From an uncultured Nitrospiraceae bacterium (GTDB taxonomy: Bacteria; Nitrospirota; Thermodesulfovibrionia; Thermodesulfovibrionales; SM23-35): DNA of 64,000 nt. This document shows positions 4,193 through 53,914 of the stretch, one piece after another. A program made the translations under genes and the position numbers. The stretch is taken from NCBI GenBank assembly GCA_937138415.1, contig CAKZPA010000033.1, positions 124,511 through 188,510 on the forward strand. Reading direction: 5' to 3'. Every line of letters begins with the position of its first letter. Positions within the stretch are counted from its first letter, which is position 1. Below the pieces are notes generated by a model that saw only the letters and a program-made list of their open reading frames with translations, did no database searches and was not told the DNA's origin.

Positions 4193-5047
4193 TCAATAGA
4201 ATTCAAGAATGGTTTTTTCTACGCGCGCGGTCGCGATCGGTTGGAGAACGAGCGGCACATCCTTAATGGTGGGAATCCGCTCCTCGAGCAGAGGTCGGTC
4301 ATTCCTGTAGAGAATACCGGTAGGGATCCGGTCTCCCCACTCCAATGCCCTCTGGAATGCAGAACTCTTCTCTTCAGGATTATAGTCGGGCTCGATACGA
4401 TAGACGCGTTGACGATACCACTCGTAGGTGTTAACCTTATTGAACGTCACGCAAGGCTGAAGGATGTCCAAAAGGGCGAATCCCTTGTGGCGGATGGCCG
4501 CCTTCATGAGGTCCTTGAGAAAAGCGATATCACCGGCAAAGCCCCTCGCCACGAAACTGCAGTCGAGCGCAACCGCGAGGGCGATGGGATTCAGCGGCTC
4601 TGAAAAAACGCCGAATGGCTGATTCTTCGTGATCATTCCCTCCCCGCTCGTGGGCGACGGCTGGCCTTTCGTAAGCCCGTAGATCTGGTTATCGTGCACA
4701 AAGAGTTTCAGATTGACGTTTCTCCTCATCGCATGGACGAGGTGATTCCCCCCCTCCCCATAACAGTCCCCATCACCCGCCACGGCGATCACGAGCATCT
4801 CGTGATTAACGAGTCTGATCCCCGTTGCCACGGGGAGGGTTCTTCCGTGCAGCCCGTTGAACGTATTGCACAGCACATAGTGCGGGAATTTCCCGGCTTG
4901 TCCGATCCCTGAGACGATGGTGAACTGGTGCGGTTCGATGGCCAGTTCTGCCATCGCCTGCTGAAAGGCTTTCAGAATTGCAAAATTACCGCACCCGGGA
5001 CACCACGCTGGGGTCTTCCCTCTATAATAGTCGTCCAAGGCAGGCAC
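4193..5047 (-). CDS. 2-oxoacid:ferredoxin oxidoreductase, beta (TPP-binding) subunit
   Basis: N-terminal WCPGCGNFAIL motif and TPP motif GDGDCYGEGGNH. GTG start overlaps the alpha gene by 26 nt. Substrate (2-oxoglutarate versus other) cannot be assigned from sequence alone. Confidence 0.9.
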   Translation of the reverse strand: MPALDDYYRGKTPAWCPGCGNFAILKAFQQAMAELAIEPHQFTIVSGIGQAGKFPHYVLCNTFNGLHGRTLPVATGIRLVNHEMLVIAVAGDGDCYGEGGNHLVHAMRRNVNLKLFVHDNQIYGLTKGQPSPTSGEGMITKNQPFGVFSEPLNPIALAVALDCSFVARGFAGDIAFLKDLMKAAIRHKGFALLDILQPCVTFNKVNTYEWYRQRVYRIEPDYNPEEKSSAFQRALEWGDRIPTGILYRNDRPLLEERIPTIKDVPLVLQPIATARVEKTILEFY

Positions 5048-6791
5048 TCACTTTTTCCAAAAGTTCTTCGACCGTAAACGGCCGCCCATCGTATTTGTGA
5101 ATCGCGTGATCGAATGCATACCCCGTCTCTGCCCTGAAAAACCTTTCGAATTGCCCCGTTGCGTTCTGCTCGACGCAAAGCGAGGCCTTCGCCTCTTTCA
5201 GCCGGCTGAGGAAATCGGTTTCAGGCCTTACCCCTGTTGGCACGGGTATATCACCTGCGGATGCGACACTCCCAACGGGTAAGGGAAAAAGTTCACTGAA
5301 ATGGAGCATTCCGATCTTTCGGACATTCGCAAGCGCATCGACGACTTCCTTGACGATTCCGTAGAGAGAGCCCCAACATACGAGGAGAGTGTCCGCACCT
5401 TCCTCCCCGTAAAACAGGGGCGGTGCGATCTCTCGCCGAATCTGCGGCAGTTTTCTCAGTAACCTCTTTTGAACCATGCTTACGCGGGTTTCGGCGTCCT
5501 CGATAATGTGGCCCTCCTCATCATGTTCGTCGCTGTCGGTTACGACGAGATTTTTCGACTGACCGGGTACACCAAGCGGAGAAATACCATTATCGGTGAA
5601 TGCGTGACGCTTGTAAGCGGTAACCTGCCTCCACTCCTCTCCCCGGATCCGATAGTCGCGATAGCGAATTCTCTTCACGTCGAAACCATCGAATGTCCAT
5701 GCCGAATCAGCGAGATACTGATCAAAAACGACGAATGTCGGTATCTGATACTTTTCCGCGAGATCGAAGGCTTTATTGGTGAGGAACAGTGCCTGTTCCG
5801 GCGTTCCGGGCGCGAAGACGACCCTTGGGAACTCCCCATGGGCAGCATGGATTGCGAAGAGCAAATCGCCTTGCTCCGTGCGCGTCGGAAGACCCGTGGC
5901 CGGTGCCGGCCTCTGGCCGAGCGCGATGACGATCGGCGTCTCGGTCATGCCCGCCAGCGAGAGGCCTTCCACCATGAGGGCGAATCCGCCACCGGCTGTT
6001 CCGGTCATCGCTCTCACGCCCGCGAACGAGGCACCAATGGCCATGTTGATGGCAGCTATCTCGTCCTCTGCCTGTTCGACAATCAAGCCGTATTCTTTCG
6101 CCTTGCCGGCAAGGTAATTCATGATACCCGTCGAGGGTGTCATAGGATAGGCTGCATAGAAACGGCATCCGGAGGCGAGCGCACCGAGCGCGATTCCCTC
6201 GACGCCGTTGATCAGAAGCTTCGGTCTGCCAAACTGTGATGGGATGAACGCGCACTTCGGGCAGTTTCGGACAGCGTAGTCGTGGCCTGCCCGCGCAGCA
6301 CGCCGATTCGCCTCAACGATCTCGTCGCCCTTCTTGCGAAAAGTATCATCGATAATTTTTTCAAAAATATCGAGCTCGACCCGGAGCATTCCAAGGACGG
6401 CCCCGGTCGCAACGGTATTGGCCAAGATTTTGCTCCCCTGCCGGAGTGCGATTTCCGTGAACGGGACATCGAGAAAAGAATCGCCTTCGAGCACGAGCTT
6501 TAGATCGGCCGCGTCATAAATGAGAACTCCGTTATCGGAAAGCTCGTCCCGATGACGGGTGATGCTTTCGCGATCGAGCGCAACGATGATGTCAACGCGC
6601 CGGCGCGATGCGGAGATACCCTTCTCCGAAAATCTGACTTGGTAGAAATTGTGGCCGCCGCGGATGCGGGACTCGTAATCCTGGTGCGTGAAGACGTGGT
6701 ATCCTGACCGCGAGAATACCTTCGCGAGCGTATCACCGATGGTCTGAATGCCTTGTCCGGCCTCACCGCCTATCTTTATAGAGTAGTCCAC
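5022..6791 (-). CDS. 2-oxoacid:ferredoxin oxidoreductase, fused gamma-alpha subunit (two-subunit KorAB-type enzyme)
   Basis: 589 aa. The N-terminus IKIGGEAGQGIQTIG is gamma-domain-like and is followed by an alpha domain (YAAYPMTPST, GTAGGGFALM). GTG start lies 7 nt after the upstream stop. Confidence 0.9.
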   Translation of the reverse strand: MDYSIKIGGEAGQGIQTIGDTLAKVFSRSGYHVFTHQDYESRIRGGHNFYQVRFSEKGISASRRRVDIIVALDRESITRHRDELSDNGVLIYDAADLKLVLEGDSFLDVPFTEIALRQGSKILANTVATGAVLGMLRVELDIFEKIIDDTFRKKGDEIVEANRRAARAGHDYAVRNCPKCAFIPSQFGRPKLLINGVEGIALGALASGCRFYAAYPMTPSTGIMNYLAGKAKEYGLIVEQAEDEIAAINMAIGASFAGVRAMTGTAGGGFALMVEGLSLAGMTETPIVIALGQRPAPATGLPTRTEQGDLLFAIHAAHGEFPRVVFAPGTPEQALFLTNKAFDLAEKYQIPTFVVFDQYLADSAWTFDGFDVKRIRYRDYRIRGEEWRQVTAYKRHAFTDNGISPLGVPGQSKNLVVTDSDEHDEEGHIIEDAETRVSMVQKRLLRKLPQIRREIAPPLFYGEEGADTLLVCWGSLYGIVKEVVDALANVRKIGMLHFSELFPLPVGSVASAGDIPVPTGVRPETDFLSRLKEAKASLCVEQNATGQFERFFRAETGYAFDHAIHKYDGRPFTVEELLEKVSACLGRLL

Positions 6792-6798
6792 CGGCAGT

Positions 6799-7266
6799 CT
6801 ATAGAAAACTTTTCTTGAGATTGTTCAACCACACGATGTGACTCTTCTCTTCCCTGATAATCTCGTCGATCACGTTTTTTTCACGCAGCGTTTCGCGGAG
6901 CGTATAGTAATAAAGGAGCGTTTCGCGCTCGAAACAGAGAGCAAAATCGATAGCCTCTGCAGCGGTTTTCACGTGTTCGAGGGAAGGGAGACACTTGTCT
7001 TTGCCGAGAAAGAACTCCGAATCGACGATCGCACGGAGGTAGGGCGTCACTTCTCCCCAACCCTCCGGCGCGTCATCCGACAACCGTCCTTCAAGGTTCA
7101 TAAAGCTCGCCTCGTGCTTTGCCTCGTGCACGGCGAGCAACTCAAACAGTCTCCTCAACTCCGTCTGATCGCGAAATTTCTCCGCCATCCGGGCGTAGAA
7201 TTCCCTGCCCAATTTCTCCGTCTGCACCGCCTGTTCGACAACTTCTCTTACCGAAAAGGTTATCAT
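6799..7266 (-). CDS. Rubrerythrin/ferritin-like di-iron protein (no rubredoxin domain)
   Basis: Two ExxH-type motifs (VHEAKHE, REEKSH) sit in a four-helix-type sequence. The start is set at MITFSV because GGAGGAG precedes that ATG. The track ORF extends to 7305. Confidence 0.8.
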   Translation of the reverse strand: MITFSVREVVEQAVQTEKLGREFYARMAEKFRDQTELRRLFELLAVHEAKHEASFMNLEGRLSDDAPEGWGEVTPYLRAIVDSEFFLGKDKCLPSLEHVKTAAEAIDFALCFERETLLYYYTLRETLREKNVIDEIIREEKSHIVWLNNLKKSFL

Positions 7267-7313
7267 GCGTTCTCCTCCCGCCCTTCGACGAACCGATGTG
7301 GGCATTTAGAAGT

Positions 7314-7679
7314 TTAGACGATACGCCCTCTACCGTCAATCTCTATCACATGCCGCTCGAGAAGATAAGCGAGGAAAAGGAATCCTCCGCACGGGAGCGG
7401 GGATTTGCCGTCATTCGCTCCGGACGGATCCCGCCTGCGCGCGATAAAGTCGCACCCGTCTTCGTTGAATGCGCACACCGAGCATAGATTCCGGCTGAGT
7501 CTTTCCTGCATCGCTGCATCGGTCGGCAGACCGAACTGCTCGAATGGGAGGGATTTCCCTTCCCTCACGAGTCTCTCGACAACGAGGAATCCTTCGCACG
7601 CGATTTCCTCGTCCTTCCAAGGCTTGAAATAAGAACAGATGTTCCCGCAAAGGCAATCCCGTAGGAAAGGGTTCAGCAT
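7314..7679 (-). CDS. Cysteine-rich hypothetical protein (8 Cys, 122 aa from MLNPF)
   Basis: The ORF is open to 7736 (GTG). The ATG at 7679 lies 1 nt after the UAA of the upstream small ORF (UAA-C-AUG), a coupling-like junction. No family recognised. Confidence 0.55.
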   Translation of the reverse strand: MLNPFLRDCLCGNICSYFKPWKDEEIACEGFLVVERLVREGKSLPFEQFGLPTDAAMQERLSRNLCSVCAFNEDGCDFIARRRDPSGANDGKSPLPCGGFLFLAYLLERHVIEIDGRGRIV

Positions 7680-7680
7680 G

Positions 7681-7938
7681 TTATCGACCCGGGACCGGCA
7701 TCGGAAGCACTGTCGGCGTTCGAAAGTCTCCCACACGAAAACTATTCACTGCTGTCCGACCTATTTCTAACTGCCGCTCGATGCCGAAGAAACACCGTGA
7801 CGACACCGTGCACAGATAATCCACGCCTTCTGTCACGATGCATATAATAAGCGTCAATGGGAATCTGCCCGTCATCAAAACGAGGTTCGCCATGAAATCA
7901 TCCTGTCGTTTCATAATGTTCATGAAATATTCAGCCAT
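7681..7938 (-). CDS. Small ORF A (85 aa) with a conserved N-terminal 28 codons; coding status unproven
   Basis: AAGGAG lies 5 nt upstream of the AUG. The first 84 nt align without gaps to 10360-10277 (61/84 nt; MAEYFMNIMKRQDDFMANLVLMTGRF versus MAECSINIVSRRDESVAHLVSMAGRF). It is divergent from radical SAM gene 7985. Could instead be a cis-regulatory RNA. Confidence 0.3.
   Translation of the reverse strand: MAEYFMNIMKRQDDFMANLVLMTGRFPLTLIICIVTEGVDYLCTVSSRCFFGIERQLEIGRTAVNSFRVGDFRTPTVLPMPVPGR
7780..7810 (-). promoter_or_regulatory. 31-nt conserved motif, copy A (11-bp-phased direct repeats)
   Basis: Plus strand GATGCCGAAGAAACACCGTGACGACACCGTG. It matches copy C (16859-16889) at 28/31. It contains ACACCGTGACG followed by ACACCGTG at an 11-bp period. 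Confidence 0.45.
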
Positions 7939-7984
7939 AAAGACTCCTTTTTAGGCACCTATGCGAACTATTATAAAATAGAGC

Positions 7985-9166
7985 ATGCGATATTATCTGA
8001 GCCGTGCCGCCGTTCTAAAAATGCTCGAGCATCGGGCCGTGTACCACGTCGAAACGGACGACCTCTATGAACTCGACGAGGCCTCCTTCGCCTTCCTCAG
8101 GAATTGCGGTTCCGAGGAGGGTTGTGAAGACGGCGAGGAAAGATTCGTGGAATATTGTCTTCGCGAGGGTATCCTCTCGCGCACCCGCGTCCCTGCTAAA
8201 AGGCCACCCATCGTTCAGGCACCTATTCCGTCGCTCAGGTACCTGGAACTTCAGATAACGAACTCGTGCAACCTCCGCTGCAAGCATTGCTACCTGGATG
8301 ATCACGCGTATAGAATCGAAACGAAGAGCGCCAGGAATGAGCTTTCCGTGGACACCGTTGAACGGGTACTCCAGGAATTCGAGGAGATGCAAGGTCTCAG
8401 AGTTCTTATCAGCGGAGGGGAGCCCCTCCTGCACAGCCGGTTCGAAGACATCAACACACTCCTTCCCAACTTCGCCATCAGAACAGTATTGATGACAAAT
8501 GGCCTTTTGCTCACCGAGCGCCTCCTTTCGAGCTTGCGCGTCAATGAAATTCAGATCAGCATCGACGGTCTCGAAGCATCGCACGACGCCCTGAGGGGTT
8601 TAGGGTCGTTCAGAGTGGCGATGGATGCTGTAAAAAGATCTATCGCTGCGGGGTTCCACGTCTCGATCGCGACGATGGTCCACCGGAAAAACCTTCAGGA
8701 TTTTCCCGAGATGGAGAAACTATTCAGCGATCTAGGGGTTAGGGAATGGTTGGTCGACGTGCCGTGCGTAACCGGGAGACTGAGGGACAATCCCGATTTC
8801 CAGCTTTCCCCCGAGGAGGCAGGCGCTTACCTCAGATATGGGTACGGTGAAGGATTTCATGGCAGCACCCATGGCTACGCCTGCGGCACGCACCTTATGG
8901 CGATCACGGCCGACGGGAAGGCGGCGAAATGCAGCTTCTACGCAGACCGACCGGTCGGCTCTGTCACTGAGGGGATCGGAGAAAACTGGCGGAGAGTCGA
9001 ACGTCTTGAATTGAGCGAACTGCGTTGCGACTGCGCACACATCAACGAATGCCGCGGCGGCTGCCGGTATCGGGCCTTCCTTTTGGGGGACGAGCGCGGT
9101 AAAGACTCCTATCGCTGTAATTTCTACGGGCTCTCAGAACCCGTGAATGGCGAGACCGTCCGATGA
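7985..9166 (+). CDS. Radical SAM / SPASM-domain protein with an approximately 90-aa N-terminal extension
   Basis: CNLRCKHC (CxxxCxxC). C-terminal Cys-rich region ACGTH...KCSF...CDCAHINECRGGCRYR. The N-terminal segment before the core (HRAVYHVETDDLYELDEASFAFLRNCG) is reminiscent of PqqD-like RRE domains; that is inference. Confidence 0.9.
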   Translation: MRYYLSRAAVLKMLEHRAVYHVETDDLYELDEASFAFLRNCGSEEGCEDGEERFVEYCLREGILSRTRVPAKRPPIVQAPIPSLRYLELQITNSCNLRCKHCYLDDHAYRIETKSARNELSVDTVERVLQEFEEMQGLRVLISGGEPLLHSRFEDINTLLPNFAIRTVLMTNGLLLTERLLSSLRVNEIQISIDGLEASHDALRGLGSFRVAMDAVKRSIAAGFHVSIATMVHRKNLQDFPEMEKLFSDLGVREWLVDVPCVTGRLRDNPDFQLSPEEAGAYLRYGYGEGFHGSTHGYACGTHLMAITADGKAAKCSFYADRPVGSVTEGIGENWRRVERLELSELRCDCAHINECRGGCRYRAFLLGDERGKDSYRCNFYGLSEPVNGETVR

Positions 9167-49439: not shown

Positions 49440-49582
49440 GATATCCTCCCTCCACTCGGATGCAGTATTATACAGGAAAAAGGGAGTACCATTGCGGCGT
49501 TCTTCGATGGCTAAAGAGAAACAACAGGATGAAAATAAAAGAGGACACCGCGCTGAGATACGGTGCCCTCTCGTGAGGACGT

Positions 49583-50044
49583 TTAATACTTTTTCTCGGC
49601 TGGTTTTGCAGGCTTCTCCGCAGGAGCCGCTGGCTTCTCTGCCGGAGCTGCGGGTTCTGCTTTCTTCTCCTTCGCCTCTCCCGCCTTCACCTCGGCCTTC
49701 TTGACCGACTTGGCGACATTCTTGCCCTCGGACTCAACGTACTTGACGACCGCCTTGTCACCAACTTTGACGGCTGCCATCATCTTGTCGTCCACCGAGA
49801 CAACCACATCGCCCTTTTTGCCTTTCACCGTGATGGTCTTCGCCTTTGCGTCGACCGCGGTCACTTCACCGGTAACCATCTTCACTTTCACCGGTGTCGC
49901 CTTCTCCTCCGCTTTCACGGGCGCGCCAGGCTTTTCAGTCGCGGCCGGCGCCGGGGCTGCCTTCTTCTCTTCGGCTGCAAAAGACAGCGAGGCGATAGCA
50001 ACGACGAAAAATACTGCCAAAAGAATTGCGATAGCTCTCTTCAC
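49583..50044 (-). CDS. Small secreted protein, paralog 1 (central beta-rich domain flanked by A/P/K/E low-complexity arms)
   Basis: GTG start after GGAGGTG, and a signal peptide KRAIAILLAVFFVVAIASLSFA. The core VTGEVTAVDAKAKTITVKGKKGDVV...VKVGDKAVVKYVESEGKNVAKSV aligns with 53242-53619. Confidence 0.7.
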   Translation of the reverse strand: MKRAIAILLAVFFVVAIASLSFAAEEKKAAPAPAATEKPGAPVKAEEKATPVKVKMVTGEVTAVDAKAKTITVKGKKGDVVVSVDDKMMAAVKVGDKAVVKYVESEGKNVAKSVKKAEVKAGEAKEKKAEPAAPAEKPAAPAEKPAKPAEKKY

Positions 50045-50118
50045 TCTTCCCACCTCCTTCCATTTCAAAATGCGCACTGACATAACCTCGTTGGTGCTTT
50101 CTGAGACCGACTCGTAAA

Positions 50119-50134
50119 AGCAAGAGGCATACCA
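50119..50134 (-). promoter_or_regulatory. Sigma-54 (-24/-12) promoter
   Basis: The minus strand reads TGGTAT-GCCTC-TTGCT, with GG and GC at the canonical 10-nt separation of TGGCAC-N5-TTGCW. It lies about 75 nt upstream of the GTG at 50044 and about 60 nt downstream of the enhancer-binding-protein gene stop. Confidence 0.65.
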
Positions 50135-50192
50135 GCGAGAAATGGCTATAAATACGGGGAACTTACGGGAGGAAAATCCTCATTTCAGGAAG

Positions 50193-51560
50193 TCATTCCT
50201 TTTTTGAGGATTGGAGATTGAGCTTCTCCCAGCGATACCAGAATGTCTTATAACTCATGCCGAGGAGTTTTGCCGCCTTCGCGGCAACACCATTGGCCTT
50301 CTGCATCGCTCTCTTCAAAAGCTCTTGTTCGAGTTCCTCGATGTTGATTCCTTCGTCAGGCAGGTCAATATCGAGGACCCCCCGTCCTTCGAGATACCGC
50401 AGTTCACTCTTGATATCGCGCAACCCTATCTCCGGGGTTGCGCACATAAGAACAGCTCGTTCAATGACCGATTCGAGCTGCCGTATATTCCCGGGCCAGT
50501 GATAGTCCCGCAGGGCCTTCAGGGCTCCTTCCTCGATCCCCTTCAGACGCTTGCCGAACTCCCGGTTGTATTTTTGGATGAAGAAAGAGACGAGCTCCGG
50601 GATGTCCTCCTTCCGCTCCCTCAACGGAGGGAGTTCTATGGTAACTACTTTGAGGCGGTAGTACAGATCTTCCCTGAACGCCTTGTTCGCGATCTGCTTT
50701 TCGAGGTCTTTATTCGTGGCGGCAATTATCCTGACATCGACCCTCACGCTTTCCCTGCTGCCCAGCCTCCGTATCTCCTTGTCCTGGAGAACTCTCAGAA
50801 TTTTTGACTGGGTCAGGAGAGGGAGGTCTCCGATCTCGTCGAGAAAGAGGGTACCACCGTTGGAGGCTTCGAAGAGCCCGATGCCTCGGGAAACGGCACC
50901 GGTGAACGCGCCGGGCTCATAGCCGAACAATTCACTCTCGATGAGGTTATCCGGAATTGCCGCACAGTTGACCGCTGTGAACGGCTTCGCTCTCCGAGTG
51001 CTGTTGTAATGGATCGCGCGCGCGACGAGTTCTTTCCCGGTACCGCTCTCCCCTAAAATGAGGACCGTCACATGGCTGGACGAGACCTTCTTCAGAATCT
51101 CGATGGCTTCCACCATTTTCTTTGAGCGACCGACAATCCCTTCGATCTTGAACTGTTCGAAGAGCGTCTTCTGGAGCTGCAGGTTTTCCTTGAGCAAGCC
51201 TGCCTTTTCGGCTGCCCGCCTCACCGTGATGAGGAGGACATCTTCGTCGAGCGGCTTCGTCAGATAGTCGAACGCGCCTTTTTTGATGGCATCGACGGCA
51301 GACGAGATTGTCCCGAAGGCGGTCATGACGATCGCGGGAGGCCTGAACGGTTCGCTGGGCAAGGCCTCTATGAAATCGATCCCGTCCATCCCTTCCATTT
51401 TGAGGTCCGTCAAGACGACATCGGGCTTTATCTTCCTGGCGATCCTCAGTCCTTCCTCGGCCGAGGGCGCCGTGAACGTTTCAAAGCCCTCATCCTCGAG
51501 AATTGTTTTGACTATGTTGCGCTGATTCTCTTCGTCATCAACTATCAGGACGACCGCCAC
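50193..51560 (-). CDS. Sigma-54-dependent response regulator (NtrC/AtoC family enhancer-binding protein)
   Basis: REC (VVLTDLKMEGMDG), an AAA+ module with GESGTGKE and the GAFTGA loop, and a C-terminal Fis-type HTH. GTG start after GGAGGAGG. Confidence 0.93.
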   Translation of the reverse strand: MAVVLIVDDEENQRNIVKTILEDEGFETFTAPSAEEGLRIARKIKPDVVLTDLKMEGMDGIDFIEALPSEPFRPPAIVMTAFGTISSAVDAIKKGAFDYLTKPLDEDVLLITVRRAAEKAGLLKENLQLQKTLFEQFKIEGIVGRSKKMVEAIEILKKVSSSHVTVLILGESGTGKELVARAIHYNSTRRAKPFTAVNCAAIPDNLIESELFGYEPGAFTGAVSRGIGLFEASNGGTLFLDEIGDLPLLTQSKILRVLQDKEIRRLGSRESVRVDVRIIAATNKDLEKQIANKAFREDLYYRLKVVTIELPPLRERKEDIPELVSFFIQKYNREFGKRLKGIEEGALKALRDYHWPGNIRQLESVIERAVLMCATPEIGLRDIKSELRYLEGRGVLDIDLPDEGINIEELEQELLKRAMQKANGVAAKAAKLLGMSYKTFWYRWEKLNLQSSKKE

Positions 51561-51677
51561 GCTATGCCTCCTCCGAGAAGAAATGCACTGTTCTCACAAC
51601 GCAAAGAACCGACAACAGAAGCGGACACCACTAAAACGGGAACGCGCGACCTCATACTGCCAAGCCATTTTGTTCCT

Positions 51678-53102
51678 CTATGATAAAGGGAGAGACAACG
51701 TAACCCTGCTCCCCTTCCCCTCCACACTCTGAAAATCTACCTTGCCCCCATGCTCCTCGATGACCCTGTTCGTCATTGCCAGGCCAAGTCCCAGTCCCAT
51801 CTTTTTCGTCGAGAAAAAAGGGTCGAAGATCTTGGGGACGTTTTCCCGCGAGACGCCTATGCCCGAGTCTTCGATGATGACCGTCGCCTTGTCACCGGTC
51901 TGTTTGAGAGTCACGGTGATCGTACCCCCCTTCGGCATCGCCTCGAACGCGTTGATAACGACATTGAAGACACACGTCTTGATGAGTTCGGGATCGAGGA
52001 ACATCGTTGGGATGCCTTCGTCGCGAAGCTCTATTGTTATCCCGTCTTTCTCTGCCTTTGCGGAAACCAACGTGATGACATCGCGGACGAGAGCCGACAG
52101 GTCGGTCAGCCGCCGATTCAGGCGGAGCGATTTCCCGTAATCGAGGAAATCCTGCACGAGATTGTTCAGCCGCTGGATTTCCTGTTTGATCGTCGAGATG
52201 AGCGAATCGAACTGCTCCTTTTCCGCACTGCCGGCAGGGCTGAACTTCTTTCTCAAATGGTCGATGGAGAGGCTGATAAAATTGAGCGGGTTCCGTATCT
52301 CATGAGCGATCCCCCTTGCGAGCTGGGCAACTGCCGACAGGTGCTCGGTCTCCCGAAGCTTCTCTTCGTTCGCCCGCTGCTCTCTCAACTTCTCGATCAT
52401 ATACTGAACGGCGTTCGTCAATTCGCCGATTTCGTCCCGCCTGTCGGTACGCAACTCCGCGGATAGATCGCCTGCGGCGACACTCCTCGCAGCGTCGACA
52501 ACGCGATGAATCGGCTTTGTGTACATGAGCGAAAGCGACACCGCGAGGATCAGACCGAGCCCGAATACGAACGACGTCGCAATGATCCGCTTGATCGCGT
52601 TGGCGGCGATAATATCAGAAAAATCCTCCGTATTGATTTTCAGATGGATGTATCCGTAGTGTTCGTTCCCCGCCACAACCGGGAGAATCACATTATACGA
52701 CTTCCCTTCCCTCGAGACCGGCTCGCCGAGCTCCGCCTTGATGATGCGCTCCTTCTTTTTCGGTCCGACTTCCTCGCCCACGTACCCTGGGTTCGTGCTC
52801 GCCACAATCACATCGTCGTTGCCGATAATTGATATTTCATCGACGCCGCGCCGACTGAGCACCTGGAGATAGTTCTGGAGTCTCGCTTCATCCGTCCCCC
52901 CGGTACTCGTCACCTCCTCGACACCAATCTGGATCGCCTTCGAAAGATCGGCTGCCTGCCTCTCAAATTCATGGAAGAGCGCATTTTCGAACGTCGAGAA
53001 GAAAACCGTCAGGAGAGACACGAGGATAAAACTGAGAAAGAGCATCATGCCGATGAGTTTTTTGTTGAGGGAAAGGTTGAGAAAATAGTTCTTCAGGGAC
53101 AT
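51678..53102 (-). CDS. Sensor histidine kinase (2 TM, HAMP, HisKA, HATPase_c)
   Basis: H-box AHEIRNPL, N/G boxes (NAFEAM, DSGIGV, GLGLGLA), and a periplasmic loop between two hydrophobic segments. Confidence 0.9.
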   Translation of the reverse strand: MSLKNYFLNLSLNKKLIGMMLFLSFILVSLLTVFFSTFENALFHEFERQAADLSKAIQIGVEEVTSTGGTDEARLQNYLQVLSRRGVDEISIIGNDDVIVASTNPGYVGEEVGPKKKERIIKAELGEPVSREGKSYNVILPVVAGNEHYGYIHLKINTEDFSDIIAANAIKRIIATSFVFGLGLILAVSLSLMYTKPIHRVVDAARSVAAGDLSAELRTDRRDEIGELTNAVQYMIEKLREQRANEEKLRETEHLSAVAQLARGIAHEIRNPLNFISLSIDHLRKKFSPAGSAEKEQFDSLISTIKQEIQRLNNLVQDFLDYGKSLRLNRRLTDLSALVRDVITLVSAKAEKDGITIELRDEGIPTMFLDPELIKTCVFNVVINAFEAMPKGGTITVTLKQTGDKATVIIEDSGIGVSRENVPKIFDPFFSTKKMGLGLGLAMTNRVIEEHGGKVDFQSVEGKGSRVTLSLPLS

Positions 53103-53241
53103 TTTTCCTATTCTACATGGGATCGATCTGGAGAAGTCAAATCAACGATTCAGCGGGAAACGAGTTTCCAGGACAGAGCACCCATTTGGAGCACGCGATG
53201 GGGTGGAATGCTCCGGGACCCATCGCGTGCATCATGACATC

Positions 53242-53619
53242 TTACGACGGAGGGGATTTCGGTTTTTTGCTTGTGGTCTTGATATCGATGCTCTTCGCGG
53301 CGAGCTGGCCATCCGACTCCCGGTACTTTACAGTCACCCGATCGCCTACCTGGACGTCCGAGAACTGTTTCGTCTGTCTTTCCATACGGACCAGGGTCTT
53401 ATCTGTAAGCAAAAGAGTAACAATGCCACTCTTGCCCTTGACGGTAAGCGTTCTTGCCGGCAAGTCAAATGCCGTCACCTCGCCCGTCACCTGGCGGGTG
53501 TTTGCCTTCCCTTTTCTGTCACTCTGCTTTCCGTCAGCGGCACTCGTCTGCGCACCCGCTCCAAGCGCAAACGTTATGACGACAATCGCCCAGACAAACT
53601 CTCTCATGAACCTTTTCAT
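53242..53619 (-). CDS. Small secreted protein, paralog 2
   Basis: AAGGAGG precedes the ATG at 53619, and there is a signal peptide FVWAIVVITFALGAGA. The core VTGEVTAFDLPARTLTVKGKSGIV...VQVGDRVTVKYRESDGQLAAKSI aligns with paralog 1. Confidence 0.7.
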   Translation of the reverse strand: MKRFMREFVWAIVVITFALGAGAQTSAADGKQSDRKGKANTRQVTGEVTAFDLPARTLTVKGKSGIVTLLLTDKTLVRMERQTKQFSDVQVGDRVTVKYRESDGQLAAKSIDIKTTSKKPKSPPS

Positions 53620-53653
53620 TGTGTCACCTCCTTTCTCCGAAAAGATGTGATCT

Positions 53654-53682
53654 ATGTTAGCATATGCTAAATAACAAGTCAA
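53654..53682 (-). promoter_or_regulatory. Sigma-70-like promoter TTGACT-N17-TAACAT with an embedded perfect 14-bp palindrome
   Basis: The minus strand reads TTGACT TGTTATTTAGCATATGC TAACAT. The palindrome TTAGCATATGCTAA occupies 53657-53670 and overlaps the -10. Confidence 0.45.
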
Positions 53683-53914
53683 CCCCCCTTTTCACCTTAA
53701 AAAAGGCAGCTCAAAGGTCCGGACGTTGTGAGAGGAATTATCATTCGATACCGCACCGTGCCTAACCCTTGCGTCATGACGACCTATTGCTTCTCCACAC
53801 CACGCCTACAGATACTGCGATACCACCAGCGAGTTAAGGAATGTGTAAACGAACGTCGAACGTTTCGGGTCAAGCAGATTTTGTGCTCGTTGAATGTTTC
53901 TGGTAGAATGCTCC

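Follow-up and report, generated by a model that had tools for sequence, protein, structure and literature searches.

The 64-kb stretch of DNA considered here (64,000 nucleotides from a contig of an uncultured Nitrospiraceae bacterium, referred to throughout as the window) carries, on the minus strand at positions 49583-53682, the genes of a sensor histidine kinase, a sigma-54 enhancer-binding response regulator and two related small exported proteins, par1 and par2. We consider it probable that this locus is a dedicated sigma-54 two-component regulon with par1 as its sole local output and with a presumed role in the cell envelope. The parts of this reading differ in strength: the wiring, in which the kinase acts through the sigma-54 activator, a two-site enhancer and a -24/-12 promoter on the gene of an exported protein with an oligonucleotide/oligosaccharide-binding (OB) fold, is very probably right, while an envelope-homeostasis function for that protein is a tentative proposal, possible rather than probable. 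The elements of the unit are as follows, with enhancer scores taken from a position weight matrix (PWM):

49583..50047, minus strand: par1 (paralog 1), 154 aa from GTG 50047
50119..50134, minus strand: sigma-54 (-24/-12) promoter TGGTATGCCTCTTGCT, TGGTAT-N5-TTGCT, with GG-N10-GC spacing
50176..50190, minus strand: proximal candidate enhancer (upstream activating sequence, UAS) site TCCTGAAATGAGGAT, PWM score 16.7, exactly 20 bp from the distal site
50196..50210, minus strand: distal candidate enhancer (UAS) site TCCTCAAAAAAGGAA, with the top PWM score of the window (23.1), overlapping the last codons of the regulator
50193..51560, minus strand: response regulator and sigma-54 enhancer-binding protein, 455 aa, stop codon 50193-50195
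51678..53102, minus strand: sensor histidine kinase, 474 aa, comprising a first transmembrane segment, a periplasmic single-Cache/PDC-like domain, a second transmembrane segment, HAMP, HisKA and HATPase_c
53110..53140, minus strand: sigma-70-type promoter of the kinase gene, TTGACT-N19-TAGAAT, ending 7 nt before the ATG
49539..49572, minus strand: intrinsic-terminator-like hairpin and T-run directly 3' of par1, with a 13-bp stem containing 7 G-C pairs, then TTATTTTCAT

The promoter of par1 is the element on which the wiring turns. TGGTATGCCTCTTGCT is the only match to TGG[CT]A[CT]N5TTG[CT][ATC] on either strand of the window, and from its position the par1 transcription start would lie near 50108 and the leader would be about 61 nt long. 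The first-pass annotation had described a sigma-54 promoter of perfect spacing in front of par1, and this description holds; the match is the sole one of its kind in the window, and the promoter is conserved in relatives: TGGYAN-N5-YTG[C/T/A] is found 51-122 nt (mostly 51-90) before the start codon at 41 of 43 loci with the same gene order, and a sigma-54 promoter is found at 16-17 of the 17 loci of a second arrangement (type B, below) that remain when par2 and its single orthologue are set aside.

Upstream of the sigma-54 promoters of the par1 family, the PWM identified two sites with the consensus TCCYYAAAAARGGAW. The pair in the window straddles the stop codon of the regulator, its sites lying 56 and 76 nt in front of the -24 element, and these distances are the usual ones: in orthologous promoters, too, the sites as a rule begin 76 and 56 nt before the -24 TGG. 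The spacing is exactly 20 bp, or two helical turns, in about 52 of 62 orthologous promoters, and wherever the small gene follows the regulator gene the distal site overlaps the end codons of the latter. Markov-shuffled windows gave 0.27 sites with a score of at least 16. The 1.1 Mb of DNA made up by the loci and the window contains 67 site pairs, all of them on the upstream side of small-protein genes and 63 of them within 400 nt of the small-gene start codon; the remaining four pair calls, from three loci, lie just past the regulator stop codon, where repeat-element DNA has been inserted before the small gene. Every enhancer pair in this 1.1 Mb belongs to a small-protein gene, and no further regulon members were found near the loci. 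As judged from these patterns in the DNA, the site pair is most likely the enhancer of the adjacent activator and par1 its dedicated target; the regulator would then be expected to bind both candidate sites.

Comparison across genomes carries the same argument further. When one genome per species was scanned, 80 loci were returned, nearly all of them from metagenome-assembled genomes (MAGs) of Thermodesulfovibrionales/Nitrospirota, and the 82 small-protein relatives from these 80 genome loci and the window were classed by tblastn with the window proteins, with the following result:

Type A (kinase, regulator, small gene): 43 small genes, 41 with a sigma-54 promoter, 40 with an enhancer pair
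Type B (small gene, then 0.25-3.5 kb, then kinase, regulator): 19 small genes, par2 and its orthologue at locus L005 included, 16 with a sigma-54 promoter, 16 with an enhancer pair
Unlinked (no orthologous system within the flank): 20 small genes, 5 with a sigma-54 promoter, 5 with an enhancer pair

The small gene thus adjoins an orthologous kinase-regulator pair in 62 of the 82 cases, and at type A loci the regulators are 67-84% and the kinases 50-72% identical to those of the window. It had been proposed that par1 is the target of the adjacent sigma-54 activator, and the type A counts bear this out. The five unlinked small-gene copies that retain both the enhancer pair and the sigma-54 promoter suggest that the regulator may control them in trans. 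What recurs is the three-gene unit of kinase, regulator and small gene; the four-gene order with a small gene on both sides, which the first-pass annotation had taken for a self-contained circuit built on a duplicated mini-protein, is confined to the lineage of the window and L005.

The regulator consists of a receiver domain (REC), an AAA+ domain and a Fis-type helix-turn-helix (HTH), with Pfam E-values of 1e-28 (Response_reg), 8e-73 (Sigma54_activat), 2e-27 (AAA_lid_14) and 1e-11 (HTH_8), and its AAA+ domain contains an exact GAFTGA, the loop that contacts sigma-54, at about 50912 on the minus strand. The kinase matches the Pfam domains HAMP, HisKA and HATPase_c, with the H-box AHEIRNPLN in its translation. 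Against the named NCBIfam equivalogs both proteins fall below every curated cutoff: the regulator reaches 451 bits against 714 for AtoC, 435 against 559 for NtrC and 357 against 760 for ZraR, and the kinase reaches 229 against 646 for AtoS, its best match, and 188 against 479 for ZraS, its second best. Because the scores lie so well below every equivalog cutoff, the two proteins are taken to be an NtrC-family pair that is not orthologous to a studied system. The periplasmic domain of the kinase (residues about 40-165) gives a weak match to sCache_3_2, and an AlphaFold2 (AF2) model of medium confidence, with a mean predicted local distance difference test score (pLDDT) of 67, was compared with known structures by Foldseek; the best match was the extracellular Cache domain of the cell-wall sensor WalK (E=1.5e-5, target-normalised TM-score 0.67-0.70, sequence identity 17-21%), followed by DctB and CitA. 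We treat the resemblance of this modelled domain to WalK as a hint.

The kinase gene has a promoter of its own. The arrangement TTGACT-N19-TAAAAT, 7-8 nt, ATG recurs in several of the nearest relatives, among them those that lack par2, and for this reason the kinase-regulator pair is regarded as an independent transcription unit. The gene has no Shine-Dalgarno sequence, and since the promoter ends only 7-8 nt before the ATG, the kinase-regulator mRNA is apparently leaderless or near-leaderless. Promoters of this form, with either TAAAAT or TAGAAT, also occur at L004, L005, L016, L032, L042, L062 and other loci, and a comparable element, TTGACC-17-TAAGATACAAT, stands about 10 nt ahead of the kinase ATG at type B loci.

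All four open reading frames (ORFs) are present at the coordinates first given, in the minus-strand order paralog 2, kinase, regulator, paralog 1 that had been reported; the limits, however, had been drawn at the most upstream start codons, and the starts have been corrected. That of par1 is GTG 50047 and not ATG 50083, as judged from a GGAGGTG ribosome-binding site and from an alignment with 33 homologues (35 family members in all), in which the N-terminus MKKAIAI, common to all aligned par1 homologues, anchors the GTG. A public gene call, P0004 (166 aa), places the start at the upstream ATG 50083. That of par2 is ATG 53619 and not TTG 53682, the TTG being part of the par2 -35 box. Both N-termini look by eye like signal peptides. 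With the terminator 3' of par1, the promoter of the kinase gene and the elements around par2 described below, the locus holds three separate transcription units: par2, kinase-regulator and par1.

From these elements the following sequence of events can be proposed. The kinase and the regulator would be made from the sigma-70-type promoter of the kinase gene on an apparently leaderless mRNA. The kinase would sense a periplasmic signal through its single-Cache (PDC) domain and phosphorylate the regulator, which in its phosphorylated form would bind the two TCCYYAAAAARGGAW sites 20 bp apart and drive open-complex formation at TGGTAT-N5-TTGCT. The sole local output would be par1, predicted to be an exported and very basic protein whose CusF-like OB core sits between disordered Ala/Pro/Lys/Glu arms, and par1 may in turn be an envelope-homeostasis or stress effector made on demand, perhaps with feedback on the kinase of the kind that ZraP exerts on ZraS. 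par2 would be a fast-evolving duplicate that has lost its arms, enhancer and sigma-54 promoter and is expressed from its own sigma-70-like promoter.

Several observations weigh against this reading. The six-frame translation of the 64-kb window contains no RpoN-box match, so the sigma factor itself is not encoded there. No terminator was found in the window between the regulator gene and par1, and read-through could add expression that is independent of sigma-54. The -12 element over the 62 orthologous promoters is TTGC in 24, TTGT in 29 and TTGA in 9, such that 38 of the 62 have T or A in place of the canonical C, which is unusual for sigma-54; the par1 promoter of the window itself has the canonical TTGC. 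The enhancer PWM was trained on the very promoters that it describes, and the specificity of the site pair was judged on the fetched DNA (the 1.1 Mb of loci and window) and not on whole genomes. Some input of the regulator at par2 may exist through a weak site at 53694-53708. The envelope-stress role, for its part, is circumstantial, resting on the periplasmic location, on neighbours at a minority of loci and on the sensor model with its pLDDT of 67.

Some features of the relatives bear on promoter and enhancer architecture in their own right. The conserved sigma-54 promoters of type B and unlinked small genes are all non-canonical at -12. At five loci, MITE-like (miniature inverted-repeat transposable element) non-coding repeats lie between the enhancer pair and the promoter (L010 7711-7998, L045 7720-7998, L015 7509-7924, L035 6580-7924 and L080 7027-7922); these inserts shift the enhancer 0.2-1.3 kb away and leave both enhancer and promoter intact.

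The small protein itself was assigned to a fold by structure prediction and comparison. par1 consists of a putative signal peptide, a disordered arm rich in Ala, Pro, Lys and Glu (A/P/K/E), an OB-fold core at residues 55-117 and, after the core, a second disordered A/P/K/E arm that ends in KKY; in the AF2 model built from the family alignment, the five-strand core (residues 55-117) has a pLDDT of about 90 and the arms fall below 50. Foldseek placed the core closest to SilF/CusF, IF1, CspA and YgiW, which identifies an OB fold, and the matches to SilF and CusF in the PDB have E-values of 2e-4 to 9e-4 and target-normalised TM-scores of 0.61-0.71. Searches with family profiles gave marginal matches only, to S1 domains and CusF. 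Among Pfam families, CusF_Ec matches weakly in 29 of 35 family members and DUF5666 (PF18914) at E<=0.01 in 12; in the window, par1 and par2 reach 17.3 and 16.2 bits for CusF_Ec, short of the gathering cutoff of 27, and for DUF5666 par2 just passes with 27.9 bits against a cutoff of 27, par1 giving no match. The domain that the first-pass annotation did not recognise is accordingly a CusF-like OB fold at the border of DUF5666. DUF5666 is named but uncharacterised, and so is not a well-characterised family with an unrelated role, which would have told against the circuit. We know of no assigned function for DUF5666. In the mature proteins of the family Lys accounts for 25% of residues and Ala for 22%, while His, Cys, Trp, Arg and Phe are essentially absent; the isoelectric point is about 9.8, and that of par1 about 9.5-9.9.

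Searched exhaustively with HMMER, the two window cores matched 1641 representative clusters at E<=0.001, and the top relatives include many multi-copy DUF5666 proteins, the multi-domain ones scoring 111-162 bits. The same OB-fold module occurs in tandem arrays in large secreted proteins such as P0124 (889 aa, 11 copies), P0161 (954 aa, 12 copies) and P0158 (3637 aa, 16 copies together with a CHU_C type IX secretion signal), and from these long arrays it follows that DUF5666 serves both as a mini-protein on its own and as a repeat that can be reused in extracytoplasmic proteins. Database labels on homologues such as 'CusF', 'ribosomal protein S1' and 'microtubule-associated protein 1' look like fold-level or low-complexity artefacts. 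In one proteomics paper a DUF5666 protein is listed as one of the most abundant in Dissulfuribacter, a finding of uncertain relevance here. We infer that the role of the small-protein family is in the envelope.

The neighbours of type B small genes add some context. A DUF4398-like lipoprotein gene (about 200 aa) lies 3' of the small gene in 13 of 19 type B loci, its product scoring 24.6 bits against the DUF4398 cutoff of 27.9 and so remaining below the Pfam threshold, and three genomes have, likewise 3' of the small gene, genes for two YkuD L,D-transpeptidases and for one more exported protein. Together with the fold of the sensor domain, the lipoprotein and transpeptidase neighbours point loosely to the cell envelope. 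A terminator and then a separate sigma-70-type promoter precede the kinase gene at type B loci, and for this reason positive autoregulation through an operon running from the small gene through its neighbour to kinase and regulator was considered and rejected. Type B units at L017, L028, L047, L054, L024 and L056 (about 5000-7900) are immediately preceded by a conserved block of archease, RtcB and MqnA-like (VitK2_biosynth) genes, the enhancer beginning immediately past the stop codon of the MqnA-like gene. At L043, L058, L072 and L079 (about 7700-8400) a second small-family gene just upstream of the matched copy forms a tandem pair; these pairs lie beside a distant histidine kinase (about 25% identity) and have no sigma-54 promoter.

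par2 lies between livH and the kinase gene's own promoter, with these elements:

53242..53619, minus strand: par2 (paralog 2), 125 aa from ATG 53619, with an AAGGAGG ribosome-binding site
53654..53682, minus strand: par2 promoter, sigma-70-like TTGACT-17-TAACAT preceded by TG, the -35 to -10 block conserved in L005
53657..53670, no strand: candidate operator, a perfect 14-bp palindrome TTAGCATATGCTAA within the spacer and -10 region of the promoter
53191..53230, minus strand: 12-bp perfect hairpin GCACGCGATGGG...CCCATCGCGTGC 3' of par2, without a U-tract, read from the sequence

The two small proteins had been called paralogs with a shared core motif, and rightly so: BLASTP aligns them at E=4e-18 with 37% identity over 112 columns and 48% identity in the core of about 67-79 aa, and the motif was quoted correctly. 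Likewise borne out is the claim that they stand under different classes of promoter, par2 having a sigma-70-type promoter with a palindrome that is kept in L005. The palindrome is unique in the window, the next-closest copies having at least 3 mismatches, which is the chance level; L005 has TAAGCATCTGCTAA in its place, and there the -35 to -10 block with an AGCAT-N-TGCT inverted repeat is conserved whereas the flanks are not, which supports the view that promoter and operator are real. The hairpin after par2 is strong, and the L005 orthologue has a canonical hairpin and T-run at the matching position, so that par2 is regarded as a separate transcription unit. Neither a sigma-54 promoter nor an enhancer pair was found at par2. 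A single weak enhancer-like site, ACCTTAAAAAAGGCA (53694-53708, plus strand, score 13.4), lies just upstream of its -35 box; L005 has no conserved counterpart of it, and a site of this kind is no more than chance would yield.

By descent, par2 stands apart from the rest of the family. Its core is about 51% identical to that of every family member, against about 69% for par1, and the protein combines a long-loop OB-fold core with the use of Arg, the absence of A/P/K/E arms and a C-terminus ending KKPKSPPS. In the genome collection its only orthologue is the one in L005, 52% identical and sharing a KKPK(S/L)P tail. The protein collection holds more than 583 homologues of par1 and, by a word-index search, only three of par2. 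The rarity of par2 is judged on the genome collection; a scan of metagenomes with par2 aligned to its L005 orthologue gave 600 pattern stretches, none of them confirmed, and was uninformative. As far as sequence comparison can tell, par2 is a divergent, lineage-specific, long-branch duplicate outside the conserved unit. An assignment of par2 to NOV5WD8W (NF052405), which NCBIfam names a nitrogen cycling protein, was rejected, with 19.3 bits against a cutoff of 170 and no nosZ nearby; NOV5WD8W is another CusF-like fold, encoded next to nosZ and described in the FESNov paper (PMC10849945).

One alternative is the circuit that the first-pass annotation envisaged, in which par2 assists the kinase, either as a co-sensor in the periplasm or as an accessory ligand, par1 is the output and all four genes form one feedback module. 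par2 is indeed predicted to be exported and lies directly upstream of the kinase gene, it and its promoter are conserved in a second genome, and the weak enhancer-like site abuts its -35 box. Accessory periplasmic proteins modulate sensor kinases in the pairs ZraP/ZraS, CpxP/CpxA and YycH-YycI/WalK, and the sensor domain of the kinase here is WalK-like. An upstream copy is present, however, at only 2 of 43 type A loci, such that the kinase works without one in almost all relatives; par2 is a divergent copy in its own transcription unit, closed by a 3' hairpin, while the kinase keeps its ancestral promoter; and the upstream copies at type B loci are sigma-54 outputs and not constitutive partners. 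Because par2 is rare and divergent and both it and the kinase gene have their own promoters, the co-sensor idea is left unsupported, and we think it unlikely. At the opposite extreme, the adjacency of the genes and the match to a sigma-54 promoter might be fortuitous, with par1 expressed by read-through or from a sigma-70 promoter, for which the missing terminator and the many non-canonical -12 elements could be cited. Yet the -24/-12 motif and the 20-bp-spaced site pair hold their fixed places across more than 50 species-level genomes and have been kept through rearrangement of gene order, unlinking and the insertion of repeats, and coincidence on this scale is barely conceivable.

The remaining alternatives concern what the small protein does. 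As SilF and CusF are the best structural matches, the proteins could be periplasmic Cu/Ag chaperones under a metal-sensing two-component system analogous to ZraSR or CusRS, and in favour of this one can point to the weak CusF_Ec matches in 29 of 35 members, the 76% probability of an hhalign comparison with CusF, the several database sources that name homologues 'Cu/Ag efflux protein CusF' and the place of ZraS as the second NCBIfam match of the kinase after AtoS. The hhalign comparison, made with a CusF sequence and residue numbering that we take to be correct, nevertheless contains an 8-residue gap over HHDPIAAVNWPEMTM: where CusF has the loop that bears His36, Trp44, Met47 and Met49, the family shows a deletion or the sequence KGKKG. 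His, Cys and Trp each amount to about 0% of its residues and no Met is conserved, the CusF_Ec scores stay below the gathering threshold and those for ZraS and ZraR far below their cutoffs, and neither CusCBA nor other metal-efflux genes adjoin the conserved unit. By its sequence the small protein is not a CusF-type metal chaperone; this comparison and the composition largely refute the metal reading, which we hold to be very improbable. A different possibility is a structural envelope protein tethered through Lys to peptidoglycan in the manner of Lpp, at a level set by the status of the cell wall. YkuD-class L,D-transpeptidases link the C-terminal Lys of Lpp to peptidoglycan in E. coli, and among 120 homologues of the small protein 88 end in Lys, 76 in KK and 48 in AEKK; the abundance of Lys with almost no Arg, the two YkuD L,D-transpeptidases 3' of a sigma-54-driven small gene in three genomes and the WalK-like sensor domain fit the same picture. 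Against it, par1 of the window ends in KKY, 29 of the 120 homologues end in Tyr (26 in GY), the transpeptidases occur at only 3 of about 62 linked loci, the lack of a lipobox precludes an outer-membrane bridge as in Lpp, and the case is purely circumstantial; we rate this tether improbable. A bolder version of the envelope role would make the lysine-rich OB proteins Nitrospirota-specific envelope effectors, either joined to peptidoglycan through lysine by L,D-transpeptidases or binding a periplasmic polyanion, and made under the control of a WalK-like Cache kinase that monitors the cell wall and acts through the sigma-54 enhancer, with the constitutive, arm-less par2 as a modulator of that kinase recruited in this lineage. 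If true, this would be an envelope-homeostasis pathway not known before, whose effector has a new fold and whose accessory protein is newly evolved, and we give it little chance. The dedicated sigma-54 regulon, with par1 as its local output and par2 outside the conserved unit, is the reading that we prefer.

On that reading, the locus is a complete and testable unit, made up of a sensor, a sigma-54 activator, a two-site candidate enhancer, a promoter and a single dedicated output gene. Its conservation extends over more than 50 species-level genomes, among which are relatives of Thermodesulfovibrio yellowstonii, a species that can be cultivated. Thermodesulfovibrionales are abundant sulfate reducers of the subsurface and of sediments, known mostly from MAGs, and to our knowledge almost nothing is known of their signalling. 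The unit provides a first regulatory context for a branch of the CusF/DUF5666 OB-fold superfamily that is both large and uncharacterised, and it indicates that the automatic 'CusF' labels on homologues of the small protein are probably wrong. The displaced enhancers offer a natural test of the tolerance of enhancer distance, and the non-canonical -12 bases a natural experiment on sigma-54 promoters.

No description of this system was found in the literature on DUF5666, Thermodesulfovibrio sigma-54, the sigma-54 regulome of D. vulgaris or ZraPSR, and its parts resemble several known systems to varying extents. DUF5666 is approached through par2, just over the threshold, and through the multi-copy proteins among the top relatives; the subfamily of the window differs in being single-domain and Lys-rich, with low-complexity tails and a tie to a sigma-54 system. 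With CusF and SilF the small protein shares its size, export, five-strand OB fold and a remote profile similarity, but the metal-binding loop and ligands are absent, no efflux pump is nearby, long A/P/K/E arms have been added, and the regulator is of the sigma-54 NtrC type where CusR is of the OmpR type. The periplasmic domain of the kinase has the same single-Cache/PDC topology as WalK (YycG) and the PDC sensors DctB and CitA, but WalK signals to an OmpR-type regulator in Firmicutes, and there are no YycH/YycI homologues here. The closest parallel is ZraPSR of E. coli and Salmonella, likewise an NtrC-family system in which an adjacent sigma-54-dependent gene for a small exported protein is the principal target, with a periplasmic sensor domain in the kinase and a regulator built of REC, AAA+ and Fis-type HTH domains; its counterpart in D. 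vulgaris, DVU3381-3384, is annotated as an envelope stress response (PMC4641369). The two differ in that the kinase and regulator here score far below the ZraS and ZraR cutoffs; that the effector has a beta-rich OB fold with Lys-rich arms and no metal ligands, whereas ZraP is helical and CpxP/Spy-like (neither par1 nor par2 has a Pfam or NCBIfam match to that family); that the genes are co-directional and not divergent; that the kinase has its own promoter and there is no sign of autoregulation; and that the enhancer consensus was derived here, apart from the published ZraR sites. Overall, no concept is overturned: the logic of the circuit is that of ZraPSR, with a different effector fold and a different gene arrangement.

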